Of a stretch of 64,000 bases of DNA, positions 20,112 to 47,466 are shown one piece after another. Position 1 is the stretch's first letter. Every line of letters starts with the position of its first letter. The notes under the pieces are model-generated. The model worked only from the letters and a program-made list of their open reading frames with translations, was not told the DNA's origin and made no database searches. The position numbers were made by a program, and so were the translations under genes. Source of the DNA: Syntrophorhabdaceae bacterium (lineage in GTDB: Bacteria; Desulfobacterota; Syntrophorhabdia; Syntrophorhabdales; Syntrophorhabdaceae); assembly GCA_963665295.1 (NCBI GenBank), contig OY762209.1:640001-704000 (forward strand). Direction: 5' to 3'.

Positions 20112-21257
20112 TCACTCCTGACTCTGACTTCTGACTTCTGACTCCTGACTGTTCTTCTTAATCGCGTCTGCCCTCGCATGGGCGACCTGGCAGAAATATT
20201 CCACCGGCGCATCCATCTCCCCCGTCTCCAGCCAGGAATGGGCGGGACACCAGAGGCACATGTTTGTCAGGGCGCATTTACGACAGGTTTCGCGGAACTC
20301 GCGGCGCGACGAGCGCTTATCCCGCACCTTGGAGACAAGCTGCTCCCATGCCTCGCGGAGCGTCCCCCGGCGCAGATCGTACATGGTTTCCGGCGCCCAC
20401 AGGGAAGAACAGAGGCGGAACCTGCCGTCGTAACCGACGTTGAAACTCCCCGTCCCCGCCCCGCAATGGAAAAGGTGGTCGCAGCCACGACGGGTGAAAC
20501 CCGCATCGATAAGATCGTCGCACCCGGCCCGCAAAGCGCTGATGCGCCTTTCGTCCGCCCCCTCCAGGGCAACGATCTCCTCGGGCGTGAGGCGTTCAGC
20601 CCGGATCTCTGCGTTGCGCCCTTCATTCCGGTCAAAGCGCAGATGCAACTGGGGGTCAAAGCGGAAATAGTCCTTCGTGCGAGGGCGGCAGAAGGCGGCA
20701 ATAGCAGGCATTTCGTGGAAGTTGGATCGCATGGCCATGGCCTTCAGGCGAACCTTCACGTCGCTCTTCAGCAGCCGGTTGAGACCCTTTGTAAAAGCGG
20801 CAAAGGACCCGGGCCGGCGGGTAACACGCTCGTAAATTTCCTGAGACGCGCCATAGACAGTGACTTCCATATCCCGAGGCGGGTATTTCCTGAACAGGGC
20901 GATATGCTCGTCCCTCAGGAGCGTCGCGTTTGTAAAGACTGAAACGAGGAGGCCCTTGCGCTTGAGATTGAGGTAAATCTCCGGGAAGTCCTCGCGCAGG
21001 AGGGGCTCTCCGCCGGAAATGAGGACCCACATCGCGCCAAGGGCAACCGCCTGATCGGCAATACCGCTGATCTCCGGCAGAGACAGCTCCGTTGACTGGG
21101 CTTCCCTGTCATTGACGGGAAGATTGATATAACAGTGGCGGCAATTATTGTTGCAGCGCGCCGTAATCTCCAGGTCAAAGGAAAGGACGGCGTGACGCTC
21201 CTTGAGTCTATTCCAAAGGGGGAGGTCCTGGATTTCCTTTGCTGCAAAGGGGCGCAT
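20112..21257 (-). CDS. Radical SAM/SPASM peptide maturase (rSAM-3)
   Basis: CNNNCRHC, SGGEPLLR, CGAG...C, CRKC.....CLWCP...C. Confidence 0.92.
   Translation of the reverse strand: MRPFAAKEIQDLPLWNRLKERHAVLSFDLEITARCNNNCRHCYINLPVNDREAQSTELSLPEISGIADQAVALGAMWVLISGGEPLLREDFPEIYLNLKRKGLLVSVFTNATLLRDEHIALFRKYPPRDMEVTVYGASQEIYERVTRRPGSFAAFTKGLNRLLKSDVKVRLKAMAMRSNFHEMPAIAAFCRPRTKDYFRFDPQLHLRFDRNEGRNAEIRAERLTPEEIVALEGADERRISALRAGCDDLIDAGFTRRGCDHLFHCGAGTGSFNVGYDGRFRLCSSLWAPETMYDLRRGTLREAWEQLVSKVRDKRSSRREFRETCRKCALTNMCLWCPAHSWLETGEMDAPVEYFCQVAHARADAIKKNSQESEVRSQSQE
20115..20150. repeat. Heptamer tandem repeat (CTYCTGA)n in the 3' end of rSAM-3
   Basis: ctcctga ctctga cttctga cttctga ctcctga ct. Confidence 0.75.
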
Positions 21258-22214
21258 TTATACTACCGGGCCGGTCGTCATGCCGCTGCGCGCCAGAATA
21301 TCACGCGTCTTGCCGATAAGGGCCTTATCGAGTCCCGCACCGCGATAACGGGCCCGCACCCGCAGGTTCACACTGTGCCAGCCTGCCCCTTGAGGACATC
21401 TGTCAGGGCTCCGGACCATGGTTACCTGCGCCGCAGGGGTGCGCGCAGCGTTCAGAGTCATGGCCAGCGTCCATTCCATAACCGGTCCTTCCTGCTGCAA
21501 GGACGCGTTTATATTGAATTGATCCGGAGGAAAAACACGGCAAAGGTCGTGAGTCTGCCCCGGCTTCAAGGGCACCCTCACCTCGTAACGCGTCGAAGGG
21601 TGCAAAGCCTTTAGCCAAAGCCGTGCGACGGCTTGATATATGCCTGTGCCCTGAACCCGCTCCAGTCCCTTGATCGATCGTGCCCGGACGGCCCGGTTCC
21701 ACCATTCCCGAAACGATATCCGCACTTTTGCACAGCCTTTGAGCGGTTTCCGCGCGGTCGGCGTTGGCTTGCCTTCCCGTTCAATCTTTGTAACGACGCC
21801 GAGGACATCGTTTCCGCGGGTGGGGCCGTCATTGCCGTTATCGCTTCTATCAGGTCGGGTGATAATATAATGTCCTCCCCTGTCCGTACCCTTCGCGATA
21901 GTCCTATGCCCGAAGAGCCGTCCGTCACGGCGGGTAACGGCAATATCACCGACCTTAATATCATCGATAAGGCGCGATTCAATGTGGAGCATATCGCCGG
22001 AACGGATGCAGGGGTACATGCATGATCCCCGGGCAAGAAATGTCGCCTTGCCGCAGTCCGCCAACACACGTCCTATTTCCAATGACTCGACGATCAGGCT
22101 TCCCTGCAACCTTTCTCCCCCCATACCTCCTGTCTTTTCGGGAAGTCCGCATGACAGGGCACATTCCCTTTTGTCTTTTGACCGGAACGGACAGGAATAA
22201 AGATTACAGTCCAT
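21258..22214 (-). CDS. S24/S26 signal-peptidase-like protein with C-terminal GNAT-like motif (start uncertain)
   Basis: RGSCMYPCIRSGD, VGDI, GHR, D.....DG, VLGVV; C-terminal VRARYRGAGL. Confidence 0.75.
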   Translation of the reverse strand: MDCNLYSCPFRSKDKRECALSCGLPEKTGGMGGERLQGSLIVESLEIGRVLADCGKATFLARGSCMYPCIRSGDMLHIESRLIDDIKVGDIAVTRRDGRLFGHRTIAKGTDRGGHYIITRPDRSDNGNDGPTRGNDVLGVVTKIEREGKPTPTARKPLKGCAKVRISFREWWNRAVRARSIKGLERVQGTGIYQAVARLWLKALHPSTRYEVRVPLKPGQTHDLCRVFPPDQFNINASLQQEGPVMEWTLAMTLNAARTPAAQVTMVRSPDRCPQGAGWHSVNLRVRARYRGAGLDKALIGKTRDILARSGMTTGPVV

Positions 22215-22258
22215 CTCTTTGTGGTGAATTTTCAGACAATGTGATAGAGGCCCTCATG

Positions 22259-22567
22259 TCACGTTGCGCGAACGACAACCATCTTCCTTTGCGCCAGCTC
22301 CCTTATCAGTCCCATCACGTCCTTCTCAATTTCTTCCAGAGACGCGGCATACTCCAGCCCTAATTCCGACGTCACAGCCCGGAGGGTCTTTTGTCCGTCA
22401 AGGCGCATCCAGATCGCCTTGCCTGTCTCGTTCAACGTGTAAAGCTCATCGTCGGCATCGCCGATACCGGCGACGAGGGGAATAATGATCACTTCGTCCT
22501 CGATCACACGGGCAACTATATCTTCAGACGGCATATAAATGCCGTCGAGTTCGATTTCCGTGTTCAT
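22259..22567 (-). CDS. PqqD family RiPP recognition element (RRE)
   Basis: VARVIEDEVIIIP, LYTLNETGKAIW..LDG, EYAA....IEKDV..LI.EL. Confidence 0.92.
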   Translation of the reverse strand: MNTEIELDGIYMPSEDIVARVIEDEVIIIPLVAGIGDADDELYTLNETGKAIWMRLDGQKTLRAVTSELGLEYAASLEEIEKDVMGLIRELAQRKMVVVRAT

Positions 22568-22652
22568 AACGCCTTTTCGTGCTCCTTCCGCACTTTCATT
22601 TTCAGTCTGCGTATCTTTCCCGTTCGTAAGGGTCACCGGGGATAGGCAGCGC

Positions 22653-22838
22653 CTAACTCTCTATCTGATCGCTGCACAGATTGGTGCAACCAGTGTCGGA
22701 ATGGCAATTAAGGAAATGGGATAGAAAATTGCTGGTTGACCCGCCACCCTTACAGGCTCCCAGCACCGCCTCTTCCGGCCTGCCCCGCACAAGGACAATC
22801 AGTTCCGGTTTGCAGTATGACTTCTTGGTCTGTTGCAT
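22653..22838 (-). CDS. Putative RiPP precursor peptide 2 (61 aa)
   Basis: MQQTKKSYCKPELIVLVRGRPEEAVLGACK-GGGSTSNFLSHFLNCHSDTGCTNLCSDQIES; leader shared with precursor 1. Confidence 0.85.
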   Translation of the reverse strand: MQQTKKSYCKPELIVLVRGRPEEAVLGACKGGGSTSNFLSHFLNCHSDTGCTNLCSDQIES

Positions 22839-22908
22839 TCTTGTCTCTCTTTTCAAACACCCATATTTGTGTTTCGAATACTACCAGATAAACGACCTTT
22901 TGGCAATA

Positions 22909-24069
22909 TTAACGGCAAAACCCTTCGATACGCTCCCGCCATCCCGTTACCTCCCATGCATTCTCGTTCATTGTGATCAGCCCCAGATATCGCGCCTGGC
23001 CGTGGGCCACCTCGCACAGATATTCCACCGGAGTGTCCAGTGTGCCATGTTCCATCCAGGATTTGGCGGGGCATTGTCCGCAGAGCCCTTTGAGGAAGCA
23101 CCGGCCGCAGCGGCGCAGGTAATCCGGGTTGGCGGATCTGATTTCCCGCAAAGGGGGGAATGATTTCTCCAGGGCGGATTTCAAGGTCGTTTCGCGCAGA
23201 TCAACCGCCATATCCGGGGCGCGCAGGCCCATGCACATCTGCGCCTTCCCGTAAGCGTCGATGCAGGCCCCGTGTCCGGCGCCACAGGAGAAGAGTTTGT
23301 CTCCCGGCGGTCCCATGAACCTTCCGCAGAACTGCTTCATCTCTTTCAGATAAAGGGGGTTGCGTGACACCATGCCTACGGTCTCCTCGGGTGTTGCCCG
23401 GAGCTTTATGATGCGCGCGTTTTTCGCCGGATCGTCCCGCCGGGAACGGAGGTCGAAATTCATGGAGTAATCGGGCATTTTATCCATCCGGGGAATCGTC
23501 CGCGCCCATGATTCAAATGCTGTCAGGTCGTTTTTCAGCAAGGGCAGCAGGGCCGCCTTCACAATGAAAGGGACCTGATGTTTCTCCAGAAGTCCGACGC
23601 CGCGGCGAAACTCCGCGAAGGCGCCCTTCCTGCCCACGGCCCGATCATAGGACTCCGGCCGCATTCCATAAACCGTGACCTCCACCACCCGCCCCGGCGG
23701 CATTTTCGCCAGCAGCGTAGCCAGTTCCGGGGTGATAAGGCAGGCATTGGTGAAGAGAATGACCCGTATCCCCCGACGGCGGGTGAATTCATACAACTCT
23801 GCAAAATCTTCACGCAGGAGGGGCTCGCCGCCGGTGAGCCGGACAGTCAGGCACCCGAGGTTGGCGGCCTGGGCCATGACATCCTTGACAAAATCCGTAC
23901 TCATTTCCCGGTTGCGGGCGTCGGCGTCGCCTTCCGGAAGATTGATGCAGCAGTGGATGCAGTTGTTATTGCACCTCTCCGTCAACTCCATGTCGAGTTG
24001 GCCCAAAAGTGGCCGCGTGCCGTGTCCGATAGTGAATTCATGGGGCTTTAACGTTCTTATATAAGTCAT
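22909..24069 (-). CDS. Radical SAM/SPASM peptide maturase (rSAM-2)
   Basis: CNNNCIHC, TGGEPLLR, CGAG...C, CGRC.....CGQCP...C; start ATG 24069 with GGGGAG RBS. Confidence 0.92.
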   Translation of the reverse strand: MTYIRTLKPHEFTIGHGTRPLLGQLDMELTERCNNNCIHCCINLPEGDADARNREMSTDFVKDVMAQAANLGCLTVRLTGGEPLLREDFAELYEFTRRRGIRVILFTNACLITPELATLLAKMPPGRVVEVTVYGMRPESYDRAVGRKGAFAEFRRGVGLLEKHQVPFIVKAALLPLLKNDLTAFESWARTIPRMDKMPDYSMNFDLRSRRDDPAKNARIIKLRATPEETVGMVSRNPLYLKEMKQFCGRFMGPPGDKLFSCGAGHGACIDAYGKAQMCMGLRAPDMAVDLRETTLKSALEKSFPPLREIRSANPDYLRRCGRCFLKGLCGQCPAKSWMEHGTLDTPVEYLCEVAHGQARYLGLITMNENAWEVTGWRERIEGFCR

Positions 24070-24238
24070 GTATACTCCCCCATCATCAACGCCGCCCACG
24101 CCTGGTTGATCCCCCCTTGCACACCGCGGCAGGTCCGGGACCCCTCCGCCTGCGTTGAGCCTGTCACACAGTTCCCATGGTTCGACTTCGCCCGCCGTGG
24201 GCGGGCCAAAACCCATAAGGGCCGGGAAGCAAAGGGGG

Positions 24239-24412
24239 CTAGCTTGATGTGATCTCGTTGCACCCGCCCCAACCTTGTTCATCGCAATAGGATAGGAATT
24301 CCCAGGGGCCGGCTGCAAAACTTGATTTACACGCGCTTAAGACAGCCTCCTCCGGCTTGTTCCGCACCAGGACGATCAGTTGTCTCACCCACGCCTTCTT
24401 GCTTTCTGTCAT
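24239..24412 (-). CDS. Putative RiPP precursor peptide 1 (57 aa)
   Basis: MTESKKAWVRQLIVLVRNKPEEAVLSACK-SSFAAGPWEFLSYCDEQGWGGCNEITSS; GGGGAGG RBS. Confidence 0.85.
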   Translation of the reverse strand: MTESKKAWVRQLIVLVRNKPEEAVLSACKSSFAAGPWEFLSYCDEQGWGGCNEITSS

Positions 24413-24429
24413 CTTTCCATCCTCCCCTA

Positions 24430-26436
24430 TCAAGGACCGGGTTTGCGTTCCAATTGTTGAGCCCCTGAACCTATAAACCTCTTTATCTCCCCCGCTATCT
24501 CTCCGCTCTTGTCGAACCGCATCACGTAACATGGCGCTTCATTGCTCAGCTCTCCGATCAGATCGAGGGTCTTCTCCCACCAGTCGGCAGTGACGAAGGG
24601 TTTGATGACGCAGGCGAGCAGACGGCGCACGACCTCCTTGCGGTCGGTGAGGGGCGTGATGGTATTCGCCTTCGCCTTTTCGATAAAACAGATGGCCCGA
24701 AGCGGCGCATCATTGCCGGAGACGACGGGCACGTCGCCGTGGCTCCAGGTGCCGTATATCCGCCAGCCGTCGCCCGTGCGCCGGACGATGTTCCGGTCGT
24801 CGCATAGGATTTCGACATTCATCTCACCCCTTGTCCCAGCCTCGATCAGCATATTGGTCGCAGTGGATTTCCCCGCCTCGGAGTGGCCTACAAAGAGCAC
24901 GCCCGCGCCGTTCAGGATTGCCCCTGCCGAGTGGAGGTAGCAGCCCCGGCGATCTGCCAGCAGGCGGGCGATGAGTATCTGATCGGAGGGGAACATGGTC
25001 AGGGAATGGAGGCCGCCCTTCCGCCAGGTATCGCTCCGGATATGGTCGTTGTAGATACGGGCGCGGGTATGATCGGCGTTGAAGGTCGCCACGCGGTGCA
25101 GCGACGGGTCGTCCGCCTCGGGGGAGATGCCGAGATAGATGTAGGAGCCGTTCTGCCGGGAGATTGCCCAGGGCGGTTTGCGGTAGAGTACCCTACCCAG
25201 ATCCTTGCCCGTGAGATCGGGAAGTTCGAAGTGGTGGCGGATCGTAACCGTGTCCGCTCCGGGTCCGTCGGCGCGAAAGGAGTCAAACTTCAGGTGAAAG
25301 GTCTGATCGTCTATGGTGAGGTCGCTGTCCACCCGGATCGTGATCCCGGCAATCCGGTAATAGCGGCGGTGGTCGGCCCGCCACTCTTCCCTGAACCCTT
25401 CGTCCTCCTGCGCCACATCGCATAAATGTTCCACGGGTGCCGAAAAGCGGCCATGCTCCAGCCAGCCGTACACGGGGCACCAGCGGCAGTCTTTGCGCTT
25501 GTCACAGGGGCCGCAATTTTCCCCGTACTCCGCGCCGCCGAGCACCCTGTCCGCCAGGGTGGGGATGAACGTCTCCCACGCTTCCCGGACCGTCCCCTTG
25601 CGCAGGTCATAGCGCATGGCGGGATCTTTGAGGAAGGAGCAGAAGGTCATGCCGCCGTAAGGATCAATATGGAAATCCCTCTTTCCGGCAATGCAGCGGG
25701 CAAAGAGGCGGTCGTCGCCGTCAGTCTGTCCGCACAGGCGGGCGTGCGCCTCTTCGCAGGAGAGATCGGGCGGGTCCAGTTCCACTACATCCCGGGGGTC
25801 GAGGCGCTGACGGACGATCTCGGCGTTGCGCTCCGGATCACGGCACGAGGAAAGATACAACCACGGGGCACCGACGCGCCAATGTTTGCTCAGAGACTTC
25901 GCTAGATCCTGCATCTTTTCCCATTCATGCCGGTTGTCCCGCATGGGGATCAACTGGATGATGAAGCCCGCCCCCGCCTCCTTAAGATAACGGAGGCCTT
26001 CCATGACCTTTTCGAAGCCGCCGGGGTGGCGGGTCACATGGTCATAGGTTTCTCTTGTCGCGCCATAAAGGGCAATCATCTTACTCCCCTTGCGTTTGAG
26101 GAGACGGGCTATTTCCGGCGTGATGAGGGTTCCGTTCGTATTAAGGGTATAGGAGACGGCTTTCCCGGTCACGTACTCGAATATTTCAGGAAAGTCGGGG
26201 CGCACCATGGGTTCGCCGCCCGAGATGGACCAGCGGCGCGTGCCCAGGGCACGGGCCTGATCGACCACGTTCTTGATCTCGTCAAAAGTGAATTCCTCTT
26301 CTTGTTCTTCGGGATGTTCGGGCAGCCACAGCCAACAATGACGGCAGCGGTTATTGCACCGGTAAGTCAGGTCGATCCGGCCTTCCAGAGGCAATCGCAC
26401 ATCGTGCAACTTCTCGTACGTGAGCAGACTTTTCAT
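24430..26436 (-). CDS. Radical SAM/SPASM protein fused to a C-terminal HprK-related P-loop domain (rSAM-1)
   Basis: CNNRCRHC, SGGEP, CGPC.....CRWCP; C-terminal LHSAG, GHSEAGKST, CDDR, GTWSHG. Confidence 0.9.
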   Translation of the reverse strand: MKSLLTYEKLHDVRLPLEGRIDLTYRCNNRCRHCWLWLPEHPEEQEEEFTFDEIKNVVDQARALGTRRWSISGGEPMVRPDFPEIFEYVTGKAVSYTLNTNGTLITPEIARLLKRKGSKMIALYGATRETYDHVTRHPGGFEKVMEGLRYLKEAGAGFIIQLIPMRDNRHEWEKMQDLAKSLSKHWRVGAPWLYLSSCRDPERNAEIVRQRLDPRDVVELDPPDLSCEEAHARLCGQTDGDDRLFARCIAGKRDFHIDPYGGMTFCSFLKDPAMRYDLRKGTVREAWETFIPTLADRVLGGAEYGENCGPCDKRKDCRWCPVYGWLEHGRFSAPVEHLCDVAQEDEGFREEWRADHRRYYRIAGITIRVDSDLTIDDQTFHLKFDSFRADGPGADTVTIRHHFELPDLTGKDLGRVLYRKPPWAISRQNGSYIYLGISPEADDPSLHRVATFNADHTRARIYNDHIRSDTWRKGGLHSLTMFPSDQILIARLLADRRGCYLHSAGAILNGAGVLFVGHSEAGKSTATNMLIEAGTRGEMNVEILCDDRNIVRRTGDGWRIYGTWSHGDVPVVSGNDAPLRAICFIEKAKANTITPLTDRKEVVRRLLACVIKPFVTADWWEKTLDLIGELSNEAPCYVMRFDKSGEIAGEIKRFIGSGAQQLERKPGP

Positions 26437-26539
26437 GGTTCAGTGAGACTATGGTACCGAAACCCTCCACATTAAGCAATACCTTTCAATTTGAAAGGTA
26501 AACACGCCCCCGGGGCCCCGGGGGCAAAACAATTAAGAT

Positions 26540-26719
26540 CTACCTCCGCCGGATTTCCTCTATCTTTTCCGCCGGCAATCCCAGCCATTCCAGGAAACTC
26601 TGATGGCCGTCCGGGTTCTCGGCCTCGAACAGCCCGTGCCAATTCTCCATCGCCTTATCGTCAAGACCGATCGCCCGGAACCGCCTGACCCATTCGTCCA
26701 CCGTTACCATCTGATTCAT
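26540..26719 (-). CDS. Small protein resembling the C-terminal domain of some MerR regulators, no HTH
   Basis: W..RFRAIGLDD.AM..WH..FE...P..HQ.FLEWLG....I..IR; AAGGGAG RBS. Confidence 0.7.
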   Translation of the reverse strand: MNQMVTVDEWVRRFRAIGLDDKAMENWHGLFEAENPDGHQSFLEWLGLPAEKIEEIRRR

Positions 26720-26768
26720 CGTCTTCTCCCTTGTCTCGAATGATTTTACCATAGCTATGATAGAGATA

Positions 26769-29216: not shown

Positions 29217-31163
29217 TTACGTCCTAATTTCCCAATCATCCGGCACAAGCGCTTTGCCATCGGTCCACCGTTCTATCGTGGCTGCCATGTAATGCTTATC
29301 ATCTGAGAAATATGCGTGCTCCAGTACCAGAAATTGCAGGGAGTTTTCTTTGGCGAAACGATACAAAAAATCAAAATACCTTTGCAGGTTTGTAACCTCT
29401 TTTGATTTTTTTAATACTATCTCCTTTTGGGGTTTTCCTGGGTCTGCCGGGTAATATGGTCGGCTTAGCTGATCCAAAATGATAAATCCTGGCACGGGCT
29501 TGGAAATAAGACCAAAATGTTTATGCAAGGCAAGAATCACTGCCAGGTGAAGGCTGAGATAATTCTCGTCGGAGCCAATGTCGCGCATTGGGATTCTGCG
29601 TGTTTCTCCCAGAATACCCGATTCAAGTTTTCTGGGATCAAAAAAGACCGGTCTTCCGTCATATGTCTTGTCAAACGGAAGTTCCTTTAAGATGCTCGTG
29701 GCGGCTTGGGATAATATTACTGATGTGTCCTGTAACCGGTCGAGTTTGGCAGATACATCCAGTTCAGACTCTAATGACGCAATTTCCTCGCGGAGAGCAG
29801 ATAGGCCTTCCTTTGGAAATATTTGTTCGCTCGCTTCAACGCTGGTCTCCAAGAACAGGCTCACCCTTCCGACGATCCTCTGACGTCTCTGATCCAAATC
29901 TACATGCATTTGTATTTGCTTTTCTTCTTGAATTAGCGAGGCTTTACGCTTTCTAAGCTCTGCGAGTTTCTCTGCCACCTTTTCTTTTTGGTTTTCGAGA
30001 TCCAATAAATAATTTCCCAGCTTTGGCCGGTCGCTTCTTACGTGCTCCAATTCAGCTCCGACCTTTCGTAACGCCGTCCTTACTTCATTTGCCAAGTCAT
30101 GGCCTACGGACAATGGCTGCTGGCACAGGGGGCATTTATGATCATCCGTTAAGGGTATCAAATCTACTGCCTTTAACCGCAACTGTTGAAGGTTGGTAGT
30201 ACTTTCATACTCGTCGGTCTGATTCAAAAAAAATTTTGCAGATGAGATTCTGCTCTTAATGCGTCGCAGTTCTGATATAACAGCGTTTTCTTTTTCAGTA
30301 ATCTCATCCAGTTCATCACTACCTTCAAAAGGCGACTTCTCCGTCGTCCACTCGGCCACTGAGCGCAATGCCTCAGAGACTTCCGCAATAGAGACCTCGT
30401 CGGCTGATGGAATGGTACCGTCATATAGTCCAACTTGAGAGGCTTCAGCTAAAAGATTAAGAGATCGTGATACTTCCTCATTCTTAAGGTTCTGAACGCG
30501 CGCATATCGTCTTTCGGCTTCCGCCAGGGCACGCCGCAACCTCGCGAGGCGATTCTCTTTGGCGACGGTTTCTTCATCGGTAATTCCGAGAAAATAGGGC
30601 AACGTGTCGATAATGCTTTGCCGTCTTTGATCGTTTGCTCCACGAAAAAGAGTTGTCTTACTGATAATAACATCATCATCGAGTATCAAATACGGGATTA
30701 AGTTGCGTGCCGAAATTCTTGCTCGGGGCCTCGTTCCCGAATCGAATGTTTCCGATTGGACATCTCCAAGACCTATTATCTGTTCAAATTTCCGCACAGC
30801 CCCGTCCCGATTTGTTATTGTGTGTAAATCGCTAGAAGTAGGTGGTATGTTAATCTTCTCCCCAACGAGAAAGAAAAAATCCTCACTTTTGGTTTTGTTC
30901 GGGTCTGGGGATTTACGACAGACCAGAAAGCGAGTCTGTTGCTGGACCCAGAGTAAACCAAACCATGAACAGGCATTCCTGATTCTATCGGGGATATGGC
31001 ATTTTGATGAGCCCATGACAAAATCAAATATTTCGGAAATGGCTGATTTGCCTGTGTTGGAATCTCCCGTAATGATATTGACTTTCCCTGGCTTTAGTTT
31101 TATTGTTCTCTGCGATTTGTCATGATCCCATAGAATTATCTGTTCAAGATTCCAATATTTCAT
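29217..31163 (-). CDS. lmuB: Lamassu/ABC-3C SMC-like ABC ATPase (DUF3732-type)
   Basis: Walker A GDSNTGKS, long coiled coil with CPLC hook, GSDENYL signature, IILDQ Walker B, LEHA; ATGA overlap with upstream gene. Confidence 0.85.
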   Translation of the reverse strand: MKYWNLEQIILWDHDKSQRTIKLKPGKVNIITGDSNTGKSAISEIFDFVMGSSKCHIPDRIRNACSWFGLLWVQQQTRFLVCRKSPDPNKTKSEDFFFLVGEKINIPPTSSDLHTITNRDGAVRKFEQIIGLGDVQSETFDSGTRPRARISARNLIPYLILDDDVIISKTTLFRGANDQRRQSIIDTLPYFLGITDEETVAKENRLARLRRALAEAERRYARVQNLKNEEVSRSLNLLAEASQVGLYDGTIPSADEVSIAEVSEALRSVAEWTTEKSPFEGSDELDEITEKENAVISELRRIKSRISSAKFFLNQTDEYESTTNLQQLRLKAVDLIPLTDDHKCPLCQQPLSVGHDLANEVRTALRKVGAELEHVRSDRPKLGNYLLDLENQKEKVAEKLAELRKRKASLIQEEKQIQMHVDLDQRRQRIVGRVSLFLETSVEASEQIFPKEGLSALREEIASLESELDVSAKLDRLQDTSVILSQAATSILKELPFDKTYDGRPVFFDPRKLESGILGETRRIPMRDIGSDENYLSLHLAVILALHKHFGLISKPVPGFIILDQLSRPYYPADPGKPQKEIVLKKSKEVTNLQRYFDFLYRFAKENSLQFLVLEHAYFSDDKHYMAATIERWTDGKALVPDDWEIRT

Positions 31164-31645
31164 ACACGCATCCCTAAACAATGGAGAGAGATTTGCATTG
31201 AACCGACCTGCCCAAACCATCTGCCTAAACGCTCGGCCATCTGCAGCGAGGTTTTTAATTGGCTGTTATCTGCAATGACTTTGCTCTTATTTTTTAATTT
31301 TCCGGTAACAACTATCTTATGTTCTGGCCCAAGCCCTATCATTCCGTTCGACAGGGCAAGATGGAGGCCGGATAACGAAAGCCGTTTTGCATCTTGAACG
31401 GAAGTGGCCAGTTCAGTAGGAACCCATGCATTACGATTGAGCCACTCCACCAATCCTGTCTTTGTATTCGTACCGTGTAGGGTCTTGGCATACAGACTGG
31501 AAGATACGATCGGTAAAGGTAGATAGACAAGGGGATACTCACAGCCAGCATCGTCTTCTTTCACATAGCCTTCAACAAATTGCCAAATAATTGAGGCTAC
31601 ATAGGCCGGGTTGGTGGCGGCGAAAATATCAAGCGATTTCTTCAT
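31160..31645 (-). CDS. lmuC: Lamassu/ABC-3C middle component
   Basis: NPAY, YLPLPIV, AERLGRWF motifs; lies between effector and ATPase. Confidence 0.78.
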   Translation of the reverse strand: MKKSLDIFAATNPAYVASIIWQFVEGYVKEDDAGCEYPLVYLPLPIVSSSLYAKTLHGTNTKTGLVEWLNRNAWVPTELATSVQDAKRLSLSGLHLALSNGMIGLGPEHKIVVTGKLKNKSKVIADNSQLKTSLQMAERLGRWFGQVGSMQISLHCLGMRV

Positions 31646-32855
31646 CGCTATTGTCTCCCTGTTGTTTAAGCCGGGCCTGATAATCTGGATGCCATCCAAC
31701 TCTCAATTCATCGGCAAGTTGCTGATAGATGCCGCTTGTATAGAACGGTTGATTCCAGCTCTTTCGAGGAGGAGGTATTTCCACAGAGGCATTTTGATGG
31801 GACCAGTCGAGCAGCTTTCGGCCCACTTCTTTCTTCGTACCTTCAGGCGAACGGGCATGATCATGCCGCATGGGACCGTGATAGTCTCTCCAGGCTTCTA
31901 CCAGTCTCTCGTCATATTCCGTCAAGGTCGTTGCGAGAGATATGTCGTATTCAAGCCACGCTCGGCGCTGGTTAATAGCCCGATATCTTGCCAAAGCAGC
32001 TCTTTTTATGCGCTCCTTGCCACCATCAACTAATCGAATCTGTTCTTGCATTCTCTCACCAATATGCGCCATCACATCGTCCGGTGTCTTCGTACTAAAC
32101 ATGTCCGGTAACGCGTCATCCGCCGTATCAGCTATGAGTTGAGCTATCCTGTCTTGGAGTTCTGTTTTTGGGATTTCGCGAAAATCCTTATGAAGCAATG
32201 AATATACAACTCGTTGATGCCACCACTCAATGAGAATTTTAACGATGAAGTCTCTTTTGTCCTGACGCAGTGTATTTTTCAGGCGAGATTTAACCTCGTC
32301 AGGTATGTGAGAAATGTCAAACGATCCCGGTTTGATTCGCATATGATCCACGAGCAGCTGGCGATCTGACAATTCTAGTTTGAGAAAAGCTTCAGCACCC
32401 TTAAATCTCTTTTCGAATGGCAACTTATTAGCTTTCCTTTCCTCCGCCTCTTTGCGTTTCTGACATATCTTCATAGCCGCTTCTGAAAGGCGTATTGTTA
32501 CCAATGACTTATCCGCGGGGTTATCGCAAAGTCGTGCGAGAGCGCTTTCGGGCCTTACACGGGAACAAGTCACAAGGATATAGTGATGATCAATGTCAAT
32601 GGGTTTTGAACACCATATTCTCATGGTTTTCCAGAAAGCATCTGTATTTTCAGAGATATCCGGCTGTTTGACTCTGCTGTGTTTTATCTGGAATAATGTT
32701 GGGGTATTGCCATGCAAGAAAACATCATCTTCCGTCTCAACTGAGACGACTCCATTATCATCCGCATCCAATAATACCACCAAGGCATATAAGCCTTGGT
32801 GTACATACCCAAGATAAGAATCCGTGGCATCGAATAATGTGTTCGTCGTGTCCAT
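31629..32855 (-). CDS. lmuA: Lamassu/ABC-3C effector: N-terminal PD-(D/E)xK (Cap4-like) nuclease plus ABC-3C C-terminal domain
   Basis: GYVHQGLYAL, VETEDDV, FQIKH; C-terminal G.YQQLADE.RVGWHPDY. Confidence 0.8.
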   Translation of the reverse strand: MDTTNTLFDATDSYLGYVHQGLYALVVLLDADDNGVVSVETEDDVFLHGNTPTLFQIKHSRVKQPDISENTDAFWKTMRIWCSKPIDIDHHYILVTCSRVRPESALARLCDNPADKSLVTIRLSEAAMKICQKRKEAEERKANKLPFEKRFKGAEAFLKLELSDRQLLVDHMRIKPGSFDISHIPDEVKSRLKNTLRQDKRDFIVKILIEWWHQRVVYSLLHKDFREIPKTELQDRIAQLIADTADDALPDMFSTKTPDDVMAHIGERMQEQIRLVDGGKERIKRAALARYRAINQRRAWLEYDISLATTLTEYDERLVEAWRDYHGPMRHDHARSPEGTKKEVGRKLLDWSHQNASVEIPPPRKSWNQPFYTSGIYQQLADELRVGWHPDYQARLKQQGDNSDEEIA

Positions 32856-33318
32856 AACCCCCTTAAGGTTCCTTTTAGACAATATAGACGAATACTCTAT
32901 GAAATCTGAATACGGCTGTTATCCGTGCTCACACAAATCCGATAGTAATCAACCAAAGGAGTGAGCACGTTTCTGAATGTATCATTGTTATTATACAAGA
33001 GATTTTCTGAATTACAATCAAAATCTAGAAGGGTTAGTCGAAAGATTCCAAATACTTCCTGTTCCGTCACTTGCAATCATAGGTTATCCATGGCGCCAAA
33101 AGGCACCTCTGAACTTCTCATAATAGTCGATACCACATCTATTGGTCTACTAAAAGGGTCCTAAGCGGCATAATTGACTGTCTTTCTTCATATCCAAATC
33201 CCTTTATCATTAAATCAGTTTCTAAAAAATTCAAGGAGGGAAAATCATGGGGATAACGATTCGCTACAAGGGAAAGGCAAAAAGCATTGAAGCGATCGAC
33301 AGCCTGATCGGGGAACCT

Positions 33319-45519: not shown

Positions 45520-47466
45520 GTAGAGTAGAGAACTGGCGCCCCATCCGGAGCCGCTTCTGCACTTTTCGATGCACGCATCTACTGCGGACTATAGCGGTCG
45601 GCAGGGTTTCCAGTTCCCCCTCATCAAACCGTACGTTCAGTTTTCCCGAATACGGCTTTCCAATCATCTTTTTCCAGAGGCATTCGCCGTCCAGGCGGCG
45701 GTGGTCGGGATTCTATAGAGCCCGAGGCGTTCATAAAGGTATGGGGTGGGGTATGCTTTATATCCCCTGCCCTTTACCCGGTGTTTCCGCTTAAGGTATG
45801 TCCGTACCCGTTCTTCGAGATAATCCTTGATCCGGGAGAAGGCTTTGCTGTTGTGACGATAGTAGAAGTAGCCGGACCAGTTCGTTGAGCCTCGCGATGA
45901 TGAACCCGGTCGGCAGGGCGAGATTTCTCCGTATGGTGATCTCCTTTATCTCTTTTCTAATGTGCAGCATTGCTTTCTTCGAGGGAACGACGAGGGGGAA
46001 CGTTTTTCCGGTCCGGCGGTTTTTTGTCACGCGTACCGTGAACCCGAGGAAGGTAAAGCTCTCTTTTGTCGCATTGATGATCTTTGTTTTATCGGCATTG
46101 AGGGTAAGCCCCAGGTCATGGAGAGCGTCCGCCATTTTAATGAATACTTTGTCAACGTTGTATCTGCAGAGGAGCACAAGATCATCCGCGTATCTCACGA
46201 GCCTTGTACCCTCCATGGCAATGTCAAAGAGATTGAGATAGATATTCGCGAGGAGAGGAGAGATTACCCCTCCCTGCGGCGTTCCCTTGTCGTTGCCGGT
46301 ATATCTCCGTTTTCCCTTCTCCTCTTCCACGAATGGAGCTTTGAGCCACATTTTCAAGAGCCTCAGGATATGCTTGTCCACGACCCTTTTGGCCACTGCT
46401 TCCAGTAATCGGTCATGCGGGATGGTGTCAAAATACTTCGTAATGTCCGCATCAATGACCAGGGTGTTCTTGCAATAGAGCTGAAGGCTCACCTCATCCA
46501 TCGCCTTGTGGGCGCTTCTTCCGGGTCTGAAGCCGTAGGAACTGTTTTGAAAGTCTGCCTCGAATATGGGTTCGATTACCATTTTGACCGCCATCCGGAC
46601 GACCCTGTCTTTGATGACAGGTATCCCGAGGGGTCGCTCTGTGCCGTCCGGTTTTGGAATATAGACCCTCCGTACCAGCTGGGCTTTGTAGGTATTGGTA
46701 CATAATTCCTCGGTGATGTGCTCTAAGAATCTTTCCACCCCTTCGCTCTCTATTGCATCGAAGGTCACCCCATCTATTCCCGGGGCACCCTTCTTCGCTT
46801 TGACAAGTTTATAGGCAAATTCAATGATGTCCTTGCGGTAGACCTTGTCATAGAGAGCGTAAAACCTGAACTCTTTCTCCTGCTTGGCCTTCTGGTAGAG
46901 CTTCGTCCGAAGTTCCCGGATCTTGTCTGGAGTTTTTAGCATGAATGCAATCTCCTTTCCTTCCCTTCTTTCAAAGCGTGATGAAGGCATTGCCCCTTCC
47001 CTCTCCCGGAGTTTTGTTGTCTCCTGGGATGATAACGGTACTATGGGCAACTCCGACTCCCTTCAGGGCCAAAGAGAACTTCGTTTCCTTATATCTCTCT
47101 GTTGCCGTTCAGGCACCTTGAAGGGTCTCCCGTGCTCCCCCATATGACTTCTCCTGCGTGTCACCCCTGCCACCCCGGGAGCCCGCCTGTCGGTTCCGGT
47201 AGTTATTGTCAGGACAGACATGTCAGCCTTCCCCCAACGTCCACGGGGTCGGCGGCTCCACATTTCAATTACGAGGCTACCTATAGGTTCGCGTTTCCAC
47301 TGCAACCCGCAGGTTTGCTCAACCCACTTGAATGGGCCTTTGTGAGGGAACTTAGTGCTTCGGGTTACCCCTCACACCTCCCTCGCGCTACATGGGTGAA
47401 CTACCAAATTCCCATGACCGGACTTAAACCGGCAAGTCATACGTTCTACACGGCATACGGACGCTC
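45520..47466 (-). mobile_element. Group II intron
   Basis: 5' GAGCGTCCG; D5 AAAGCCGTATTCGGGAAAACTGAACGTACGGTTTG; 3' end CTACTCTAC; internal RT gene. Confidence 0.88.
45664..46942 (-). pseudogene. ltrA: Group II intron reverse transcriptase/maturase, frameshifted in domain X, no endonuclease
   Basis: PGIDG, RPLGIP..DR, YGFRPGRS, GTPQGGVISPLLANIYL, YADD, FLGF; after LNELVR the expected GYFYY..YLYERLGL continues in another frame. Confidence 0.85.

Follow-up and report, generated by a model that had tools for sequence, protein, structure and literature searches.

Several described pathways for peptides that are made on ribosomes and modified post-translationally (RiPPs) share parts with the gene cluster analyzed here. 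In the available text on the pathway of the linear polyphosphorylated peptides (LPP; LppA/B/K/S/D/N), the peptidase LppS, which has a Ser-His-Asp triad, removes the leader only with its RiPP recognition element (RRE), and the kinase LppK phosphorylates Ser3 of the core (Popov 2026, PMC13381572). The kinases PadeK and PsmK are described in the accessible parts of another report as phosphorylating a C-terminal Ser and requiring a DD motif (PMC6993621). The precursor family that concerns us has itself been listed in a survey, as group 6, 'Other Uncharacterized', with 13 rows, eight of them with three radical S-adenosylmethionine (rSAM) enzymes (Precord et al, 2023; PMC10288494, available portions). 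In that survey six uncharacterized groups with more than five unique sequences were predicted to be associated with sactisynthases, and by our own count exactly six groups in the accessible supplement (6 and 14-18) fit this description; group 6 is probably among them. Here we describe a member of this family in a 64,000-nucleotide stretch (the window) of a Syntrophorhabdaceae bacterium genome (GCA_963665295.1, contig OY762209.1, positions 640,001 to 704,000). The cluster is an intact member of a large, catalogued rSAM RiPP family, and its analysis adds three things to an earlier note on this DNA: a link between one enzyme, rSAM-A, and the penultimate Cys of the precursor core, a virtually invariant C-terminal Ser, and a Cys-type peptidase. 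The seven genes form a single minus-strand run that spans 26436 to 20112 of the window:

25381..26436, minus strand: rSAM-A radical SAM/SPASM domain, approximately residues 1-352 of a 668-aa fusion; PF04055, 82.5 bits
24430..25380, minus strand: HprK-like P-loop kinase domain, in the same fusion protein as rSAM-A; intact His502, Walker A (517) and Asp546-Asp547
24239..24412, minus strand: precursor 1, 57 aa; leader, CK, three-Cys core with GP-x6-C, ending in C-x5-Ser; Shine-Dalgarno sequence GGAGG
22909..24069, minus strand: rSAM-B radical SAM/SPASM enzyme, 386 aa; PF04055
22653..22838, minus strand: precursor 2, 61 aa; YxxP leader, CK, four-Cys core, ending in C-x5-Ser
22259..22567, minus strand: discrete RRE (PqqD-like), 102 aa; PF05402, 51.6 bits, cutoff 23.4
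21258..22214, minus strand: soluble S26/SipW-fold peptidase with truncated GNAT-like domain; Cys65 at the catalytic Ser position; alternative start 22124
20112..21257, minus strand: rSAM-C radical SAM/SPASM enzyme, 381 aa; PF04055

Every open reading frame (ORF) is intact, in the order and on the strand given in the earlier note, which had proposed a RiPP cluster with three rSAM/SPASM enzymes and no lasso cyclase, YcaO or lanthipeptide enzyme; Pfam and NCBIfam profiles matched none of these last three in the cluster. Both motifs that it ascribed to the enzymes were found in all three, the CxxxCxxC at C27/31/34, C33/37/40 and C35/39/42, and the full seven-Cys SPASM motif as C-x11/12-G-x4-C-x41-CxxC-x5-C-x2-C-x18-C. 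The start of rSAM-B is most likely the ATG at 24069, which has an SD-like GGGGAG upstream, and not the TTG at 24318. The G+C content within the cluster (0.55-0.61) is close to that nearby (~0.52-0.59), indicating no sharp island boundary, and a scan for promoters and terminators was at chance level (6 against 3.7 and 10 against 7.8). That the cluster encodes a RiPP pathway, as had been claimed, is hardly in doubt, and the precursor leader co-occurs with rSAM and RRE genes.

A leader hidden Markov model (HMM), built from 111 homologs with the window's own peptides left out, was run against the 120,437 six-frame ORFs of the genome and found precursor 2 at E 5e-14 and precursor 1 at E 2e-11, with the next match in the genome at E 1.6 and the best match on reversed ORFs at E 1.2. 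With E-values so far below background, the precursors are not chance ORFs. The two Cys-rich precursors of the earlier note are both real and share a leader, but precursor 1 has only three Cys and lacks the WxxP Pro that is present in 101 of 113 precursors. Among the 43 loci with a length of 15 kb or more, 41 contain a precursor. With an iterated leader profile, 115 matches were obtained in 65 of 81 loci, and 113 of these allowed anchoring on the junction Cys; core statistics refer to a set of 108, from which four broken or read-through cores and one duplicate were removed. The leader consensus is WxxPxLxVLxRxxPEExVLxx, followed by CK, with the Lys present in 104 of the set of 108. Cores usually contain four Cys and end in C-x5-Ser: the last residue is Ser in 99 and Thr in six of the 108, and in 89 the distance from the last Cys to the end is exactly six residues. 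A GP motif occurs about eight residues before the second Cys (Gly in 55, Pro in 48). Apart from the Cys, the Lys after the first Cys, the GP and the terminal Ser, the cores are hypervariable. No aromatic position is conserved and 12 of the 108 cores contain no Trp, Tyr or Phe, and assignment to the cyclophane RiPPs (triceptide, darobactin or streptide type) was rejected on this ground. With protein clusters defined at 50% identity, 3,519 match the precursor profile if the threshold is E<=0.001, and 1,268 if it is E<=1e-10; of the top 150 matches in this search 148 end in Ser or Thr, a count to be read in light of a profile that favors such matches. Divergent forms include a locus with 11 leader matches and divergent cores (L023), a precursor in which Phe replaces the otherwise invariant junction Cys and which adjoins a stand-alone kinase and rSAM-B (L106:8702-8890), and an archaeal clade with shortened precursor tails, mostly without the terminal Ser, that retains three rSAMs and the kinase motifs (L051:8350-8831, L128:6358-8345).

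There are 341 confirmed relatives of rSAM-C in GTDB contigs, and the first set of loci was drawn from the best 80 of these, which biases it toward close relatives. Its hosts, from many anaerobic phyla, are Deltaproteobacteria, Chlorobiaceae, Omnitrophota, Acidobacteriota, Chloroflexota, Planctomycetota and methanogens. The cassette is stable across the 43 long loci (at least 15 kb): rSAM-B is present in 43, rSAM-C in 43 (by selection, rSAM-C having been the query), the peptidase in 42, the kinase in 41, the RRE in 38, rSAM-A in 36 and an ABC exporter in 28. Some loci also carry a methyltransferase, a GNAT domain or a prenyltransferase. The kinase domain occurs in 12 of 401 genomes of the bacterium's own phylum, its own genome included, in none of the 11 others of its own family, and, for three other groups, in 14 of 401, 7 of 301 and 6 of 105 genomes; the distribution is patchy. 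A metagenome scan gave only eight loci. One branch without rSAM-A (L016, L022, L043) carries a LynF/TruF-like prenyltransferase and a geranylgeranyl-reductase-like protein, with a methyltransferase as well in L016 and L022. Another locus (L097) has a kinase, RRE, S26 peptidase and ABC transporter with no rSAM or precursor detected within 20 kb, a layout like that of LPP.

In some loci the kinase is a stand-alone gene and rSAM-A is missing, and this difference is mirrored in the precursor. A core with at least four Cys was found in 44 of 45 loci of the first set that contain rSAM-A and a precursor, the window included, and in none of nine that lack it; two fragment cores were excluded from this count, as was L033, which lacks both rSAM-A and a precursor. 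In a fresh set gathered with the kinase as the query, the corresponding counts were 16 of 18 and 0 of 6, after removal of 11 duplicates, of any locus lacking a precursor and of L122, which has no rSAM within 20 kb; the rSAM-A status and some Cys counts were read by eye. L122 does have a kinase and a three-Cys precursor, and another contig carries two B/C-like rSAMs. When the sets are combined, a core of at least four Cys occurs in 60 of the 63 loci that contain rSAM-A and in none of the 15 that lack it. On a quick IQ-TREE phylogeny of rSAM-B and rSAM-C (77 rows; L085 gave no full row), rSAM-A status requires eight changes, at least seven of which are forced by well-supported branches. Thus, rSAM-A was lost independently at least seven times, and the precursor is then without the penultimate Cys. 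In seven independent pairs of loci the Cys trait differed in the same direction in 6.0 on average, in the opposite direction in none, and not at all in 1.0 (paired sign test, median p 0.031). All 20 cores from loci without rSAM-A have three Cys, 18 of the 20 retain C-x5-S/T, and the median core length falls from 34 to 29, so that the lost unit is the penultimate Cys with its spacer. No rSAM-A ortholog was found elsewhere in 13 genomes with such loci, which are mostly incomplete metagenome-assembled genomes (MAGs) with three that are 92-98% complete: the best match, which was rSAM-B or rSAM-C, had 36% identity, against 60% for the positive control. Because the presence of an enzyme tracks a single Cys, the Cys residues are likely to be the substrates, with the penultimate one served by rSAM-A. 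The pattern suggests Cys-directed, probably thioether, chemistry that is split among the paralogs.

The three enzymes are paralogs with 33-39% identity, and each has its own conserved active-site lining. None of the NCBIfam rSAM models matched rSAM-A, rSAM-B or rSAM-C at its cutoff; the best matches, far below, include AhbD, NirJ2 and MftC. Conservation within each ortholog group is high, with the seven SPASM Cys in 47 of 47 rSAM-A orthologs, eight C-terminal Cys in 76 of 76 rSAM-C orthologs, and an extra Cys269 beyond the SPASM Cys in 63 of 67 rSAM-B orthologs. The SPASM spacing is that of the sactisynthases RumMC and TrnC, for RumMC apart from the long gap (as given in the accessible parts of the sources, which for these comparisons also include PMC6231123, PMC8188230 and PMC12093266). 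At the catalytic-site positions used by Precord et al, which we mapped ourselves and to which we give little weight, rSAM-C has Y, T/S, F and T/S, like StsB and SkfB, and rSAM-A has W, S, N and A. An AlphaFold2 model of rSAM-A (pLDDT 92.7) is nearest in fold to SuiB, which ranks top, SkfB, BlsE, PqqE, CteB and anSME, all of them only 14-19% identical, and structure therefore does not assign a function.

The kinase domain gives weak matches to ScmC (28.2 bits, cutoff 125) and HprK_rel_B. Among 97 homologs, its His, Walker A and DD motifs are intact in 88, with DE in place of DD in four, broken motifs in three and truncation in two. By analogy with PadeK and PsmK, we incline to the view that its most likely target is the C-terminal Ser.

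The peptidase matches TIGR02228 (E 1e-7) and, weakly, PF00717. Its AlphaFold2 model (pLDDT 81.8) combines an N-terminal domain of the signal-peptidase/LexA fold with a C-terminal GNAT-like domain; the best Foldseek match is the signal peptidase complex 7p2p at E 1.6e-3, GNATs are weaker, and none reaches E<=0.001. All 76 homologs share His103, Asp122 and Asp129; at the nucleophile position 63 have Ser and 13 have Cys, among them the window copy with its Cys65. These 13 form one branch with 97% SH-aLRT support on a quick tree, span at least five phyla and all carry a GNAT-like tail, which is truncated in the window copy. To our knowledge, S26-fold enzymes catalyze by Ser-Lys or Ser-His-Asp; if working, a Cys-nucleophile S26 peptidase would be unusual for the fold. 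The precursor junction is unchanged between neighbors of Cys-type and Ser-type peptidases (9 and 100 precursors, respectively), with the Glu, Leu and Cys present in nine of the nine beside Cys-type enzymes. One locus (L039) has a peptidase of each type, each behind its own RRE. From the LppS precedent the S26-fold enzyme would have the same leader-removal role here, and, purely as an analogy, cleavage after ExVL would place the junction Cys at +3, like the modified Ser3 of LPP. No ABC transporter is present among the seven genes. One encoded 270 kb away in the genome (391408-393252) scores 726 bits on the family exporter profile, for which members score 610-862, and sits in a lasso-type cluster; its use in trans by the window's cluster is a guess.

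Taken together, these observations lead us to lean toward a model in which the cluster makes a ribosomal peptide with several Cys-derived rings, with labor divided among the three rSAM enzymes. The RRE would bind the W/YxxPxL leader and present the precursor, as the LPP and lasso precedents suggest. The three SPASM enzymes would be non-redundant, each joining one core Cys to a carbon nearby by means of a SAM-derived radical; the rings are probably thioethers. Given the covariation, rSAM-A would act on the penultimate Cys, and rSAM-B and rSAM-C would act, in either assignment, on the two Cys that are always present, in GP-x6-C and in C-x5-Ser, no locus having been found that separates rSAM-B from rSAM-C (loci without rSAM-B are short or end at a contig edge). 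The HprK-like domain could then phosphorylate a Ser, most likely the C-terminal one, and the S26-fold enzyme, with its Cys-His-Asp triad in this copy, could remove the leader at the ExVLxxCK junction. An MsbA-like ABC transporter would export the product, with the window copy perhaps borrowing the distant one, and methyl, acetyl or prenyl groups may be added in some branches. The crosslinked peptide proposed earlier agrees with this model, Cys-directed crosslinking being the likeliest chemistry and the covariation of rSAM-A with a Cys pointing the same way at the level of sequence.

A number of observations weigh against this interpretation. The sign test spans 0.031-0.0625 on a quick tree, and most of the genomes are incomplete MAGs. 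Three loci (L054, L106 and L112) carry rSAM-A yet have only three-Cys cores, L106 and L112 also holding a second module with a stand-alone kinase, and precursor 1 of the window has three Cys beside the four of precursor 2. The kinase shows no clean covariation with the terminal Ser: 129 precursors that end in Ser or Thr lie beside intact kinases and six that do not, and a different six retain Ser or Thr next to a kinase whose motifs are altered. Among potential acceptor residues only the Gly at position -8 relative to the second Cys is conserved (55 of 108), and active-site positions 2-4 are partly shared with BlsE and PqqE, which do not form thioethers. An eighth Cys precedes the SPASM motif in 45 of 47 rSAM-A, 76 of 76 rSAM-C and 54 of 67 rSAM-B orthologs. 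In the accessible text of Grell et al, the auxiliary clusters of anSME, SuiB and PqqE are fully ligated and that of CteB has an open site, and the eighth Cys, resembling anSME and SuiB more than CteB, therefore counts mildly against thioethers; the same text describes a conserved Cys of SkfB as unligated, so that cluster ligation is not readable from sequence. In an alternative model, fully ligated auxiliary clusters serve as electron acceptors for non-thioether radical chemistry and the terminal Ser is a substrate of an rSAM enzyme and not of the kinase. Examples of such chemistry are an anSME-like oxidation that turns a Cys or the terminal Ser into an aldehyde or thioaldehyde, MftC-like oxidative decarboxylation at the C terminus, and heterocycle formation. 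The eight or more conserved C-terminal Cys of each paralog, the presence of AhbD, NirJ2 and MftC among the best NCBIfam matches, SuiB as the top fold, the fixed spacing of C-x5-Ser, and the retention of the terminal Ser in L006 and L078, where the kinases are broken, would all fit it. However, one enzyme tracks one Cys, and family scores far below cutoff and folds of such low identity assign no function; we consider this alternative unlikely, and its cyclophane variant unlikely too, given the variable and sometimes absent aromatic residues of the core.

A second possibility retains thioethers and differs in the division of labor, with rSAM-B and rSAM-C acting as one obligate complex and rSAM-A as an optional enzyme for an extra ring. 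Its precedent is thuricin CD, where, according to the available text, the radical chemistry of only one of the partners TrnC and TrnD is strictly needed. The finding that rSAM-B accompanies rSAM-C in all 43 long loci, with only rSAM-A ever lost, is what such a complex would produce, although rSAM-C was the query by which those loci were selected. Furthermore, rSAM-B and rSAM-C both keep CxxxCxxC and a complete SPASM motif, whereas the auxiliary domain of TrnD is truncated, and loci without rSAM-A hold two enzymes and exactly two non-junction Cys, all of which makes the obligate complex rather improbable. It is very improbable that the family is active elsewhere and the window copy partly decayed or incomplete. 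The Pro missing from precursor 1, the GNAT domain without its C-terminal part, the absence of an ABC transporter from the cluster and the Ser-to-Cys change in the peptidase could be read as decay. Against this, none of the seven ORFs is broken and every catalytic motif is intact, the Cys-type peptidases are a 13-member clade with invariant His and both Asp, the precursors near them keep their junction, and a family-type exporter exists elsewhere in the genome. Division of Cys-directed crosslinking among three enzymes remains the preferred model. A bolder reading, in which the cluster represents a new RiPP class with three SPASM paralogs that form an assembly line and are each dedicated to one Cys, non-sactionine chemistry on fully ligated clusters, a C-x5-Ser end coupled to phosphorylation, and a Ser-to-Cys leader peptidase, is doubtful.

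Directly upstream of rSAM-A is a 70-aa ORF (26540-26752, minus strand) with no real Pfam or NCBIfam match, which looks like the C-terminal remnant of a MerR-type regulator and which is followed by a GC-rich hairpin at 26505-26526. Farther along the window, a three-gene Lamassu/ABC-3C anti-phage system (matches to LmuA, LmuC and LmuB; 29217-32882, minus strand) lies in a stretch of low G+C content (0.45-0.47) with IS3, IS110 and other transposase genes after it, and a reverse-transcriptase ORF (PF00078) is found at 45791-47050 on the minus strand.

The suggestion that this cluster belongs to an unnoticed class goes too far, because Precord et al had already listed the precursor family, with the leader and core pattern seen here, and rows 2749 and 2753 of their list match the precursors of L048 and L031, respectively, when compared by eye. 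Theirs is a computational listing, in the available parts of which the kinase, the peptidase, a division of labor and experiments are not mentioned. The earlier view that its leader and layout fit no characterized family is supported. No experimental description of the chemistry of the precursor family was found in the searched literature, from whose coverage subscription journals are largely missing, and this family that spans bacteria and methanogens has no product or reaction that we found described. Although the likeliest chemistry, thioether formation, is of a known kind, site-specific maturases that act on hypervariable cores would be useful for peptide macrocyclization, and the repeated joint loss of an enzyme and a Cys makes natural two-enzyme and three-enzyme versions available for comparison.

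SynChlorMet cassettes, to which the earlier note had compared the parts list, do have in common with this cluster an HprK-like protein, PqqD, SPASM enzymes and similar anaerobic hosts, but they have a different precursor, and two rSAMs with two RREs where this cluster has three with one. Membership was rejected, as all five models (TIGR04248-TIGR04252) were missed. Neither precursor gave an NCBIfam match, and the ScmA precursor model (TIGR04252, cutoff 35) matched neither of them at E<=10; it also missed the genome's own SCM-type precursor candidate; ScmC (TIGR04249, cutoff 125) gave the 28.2 bits noted above, compared with 148.7 for the genome's SCM-type cassette; ScmE and ScmF (cutoff 400) gave 57-88 bits, compared with 299 on ScmF for the SCM-type enzyme of the genome; and ScmD (cutoff 100) gave the RRE 24 bits. 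That SynChlorMet-type cassette (L132, genome 5097400-5102200) comprises two RREs and two rSAMs, a fusion of ScmC with an S26 domain, and a divergent precursor of the YxxP type in which CxxG is repeated. The lasso-type cluster with the distant transporter (L131, genome 385000-393300) has an RRE, a cyclase-like protein, an HprK-like kinase, a 286-aa ORF without annotation, another of 446 aa, a B2 peptidase and an ABC exporter. The genome therefore holds three RRE systems, at least two of them with [Y/W]xxP leaders, which bears on how leaders are discriminated. Like the paeninodin and pseudomycoidin lasso systems, as the accessible parts of their report describe them (PMC6993621), our cluster combines a WxxP leader, an HprK-like kinase with a DD motif and a C-terminal Ser. 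Membership among the lasso peptides was rejected because neither a macrolactam cyclase nor a B2 peptidase is among the seven genes or among the recurrent families that were annotated.

A seven-Cys SPASM rSAM enzyme beside a Cys-rich precursor, the hallmark of sactipeptide and ranthipeptide clusters, is present, and the multi-maturase sactipeptide systems (thuricin CD with TrnC/TrnD and ruminococcin C with RumMC1/2) resemble this one, in the available descriptions, in having Cys-rich precursors, several enzymes and precursors, and SPASM enzymes with equal x2/x18 or x2/x14 spacing. In contrast to those systems, the RRE of this cluster is discrete, three divergent paralogs with full SPASM motifs are joined by a kinase and an S26 peptidase, and the Cys are spread along the core instead of clustered for a hairpin. 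For the set of RRE, S26 peptidase and HprK kinase, judged by analogy of parts, the closest functional precedent is LPP, closer than SynChlorMet. The available LPP text (PMC13381572) describes a discrete RRE, an SpI/S26-like leader peptidase, an HprK-like kinase, an MsbA-like exporter and a [Y/W]xxP leader, a toolkit whose peptidase, RRE, kinase and exporter recur in 42, 38, 41 and 28 of the 43 long loci, with the exporter missing from the window's cluster. LPP systems have their own features, among them the leader YxxPxVLxHQxIxFETxxS, phosphorylation of core Ser3, an NTP transferase, a linear core, mostly Bacillota hosts and, in the main text, no rSAM. Membership in LPP was rejected because the leader here (WxxPxLxVLxRxxPEExVLxxCK) differs, three rSAMs are present, and no NTP transferase is among the annotated families. 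Compared with LPP, this cluster therefore stands apart in its three SPASM enzymes, its Cys-rich core with a terminal Ser, and the Cys nucleophile of the peptidase in the window copy.

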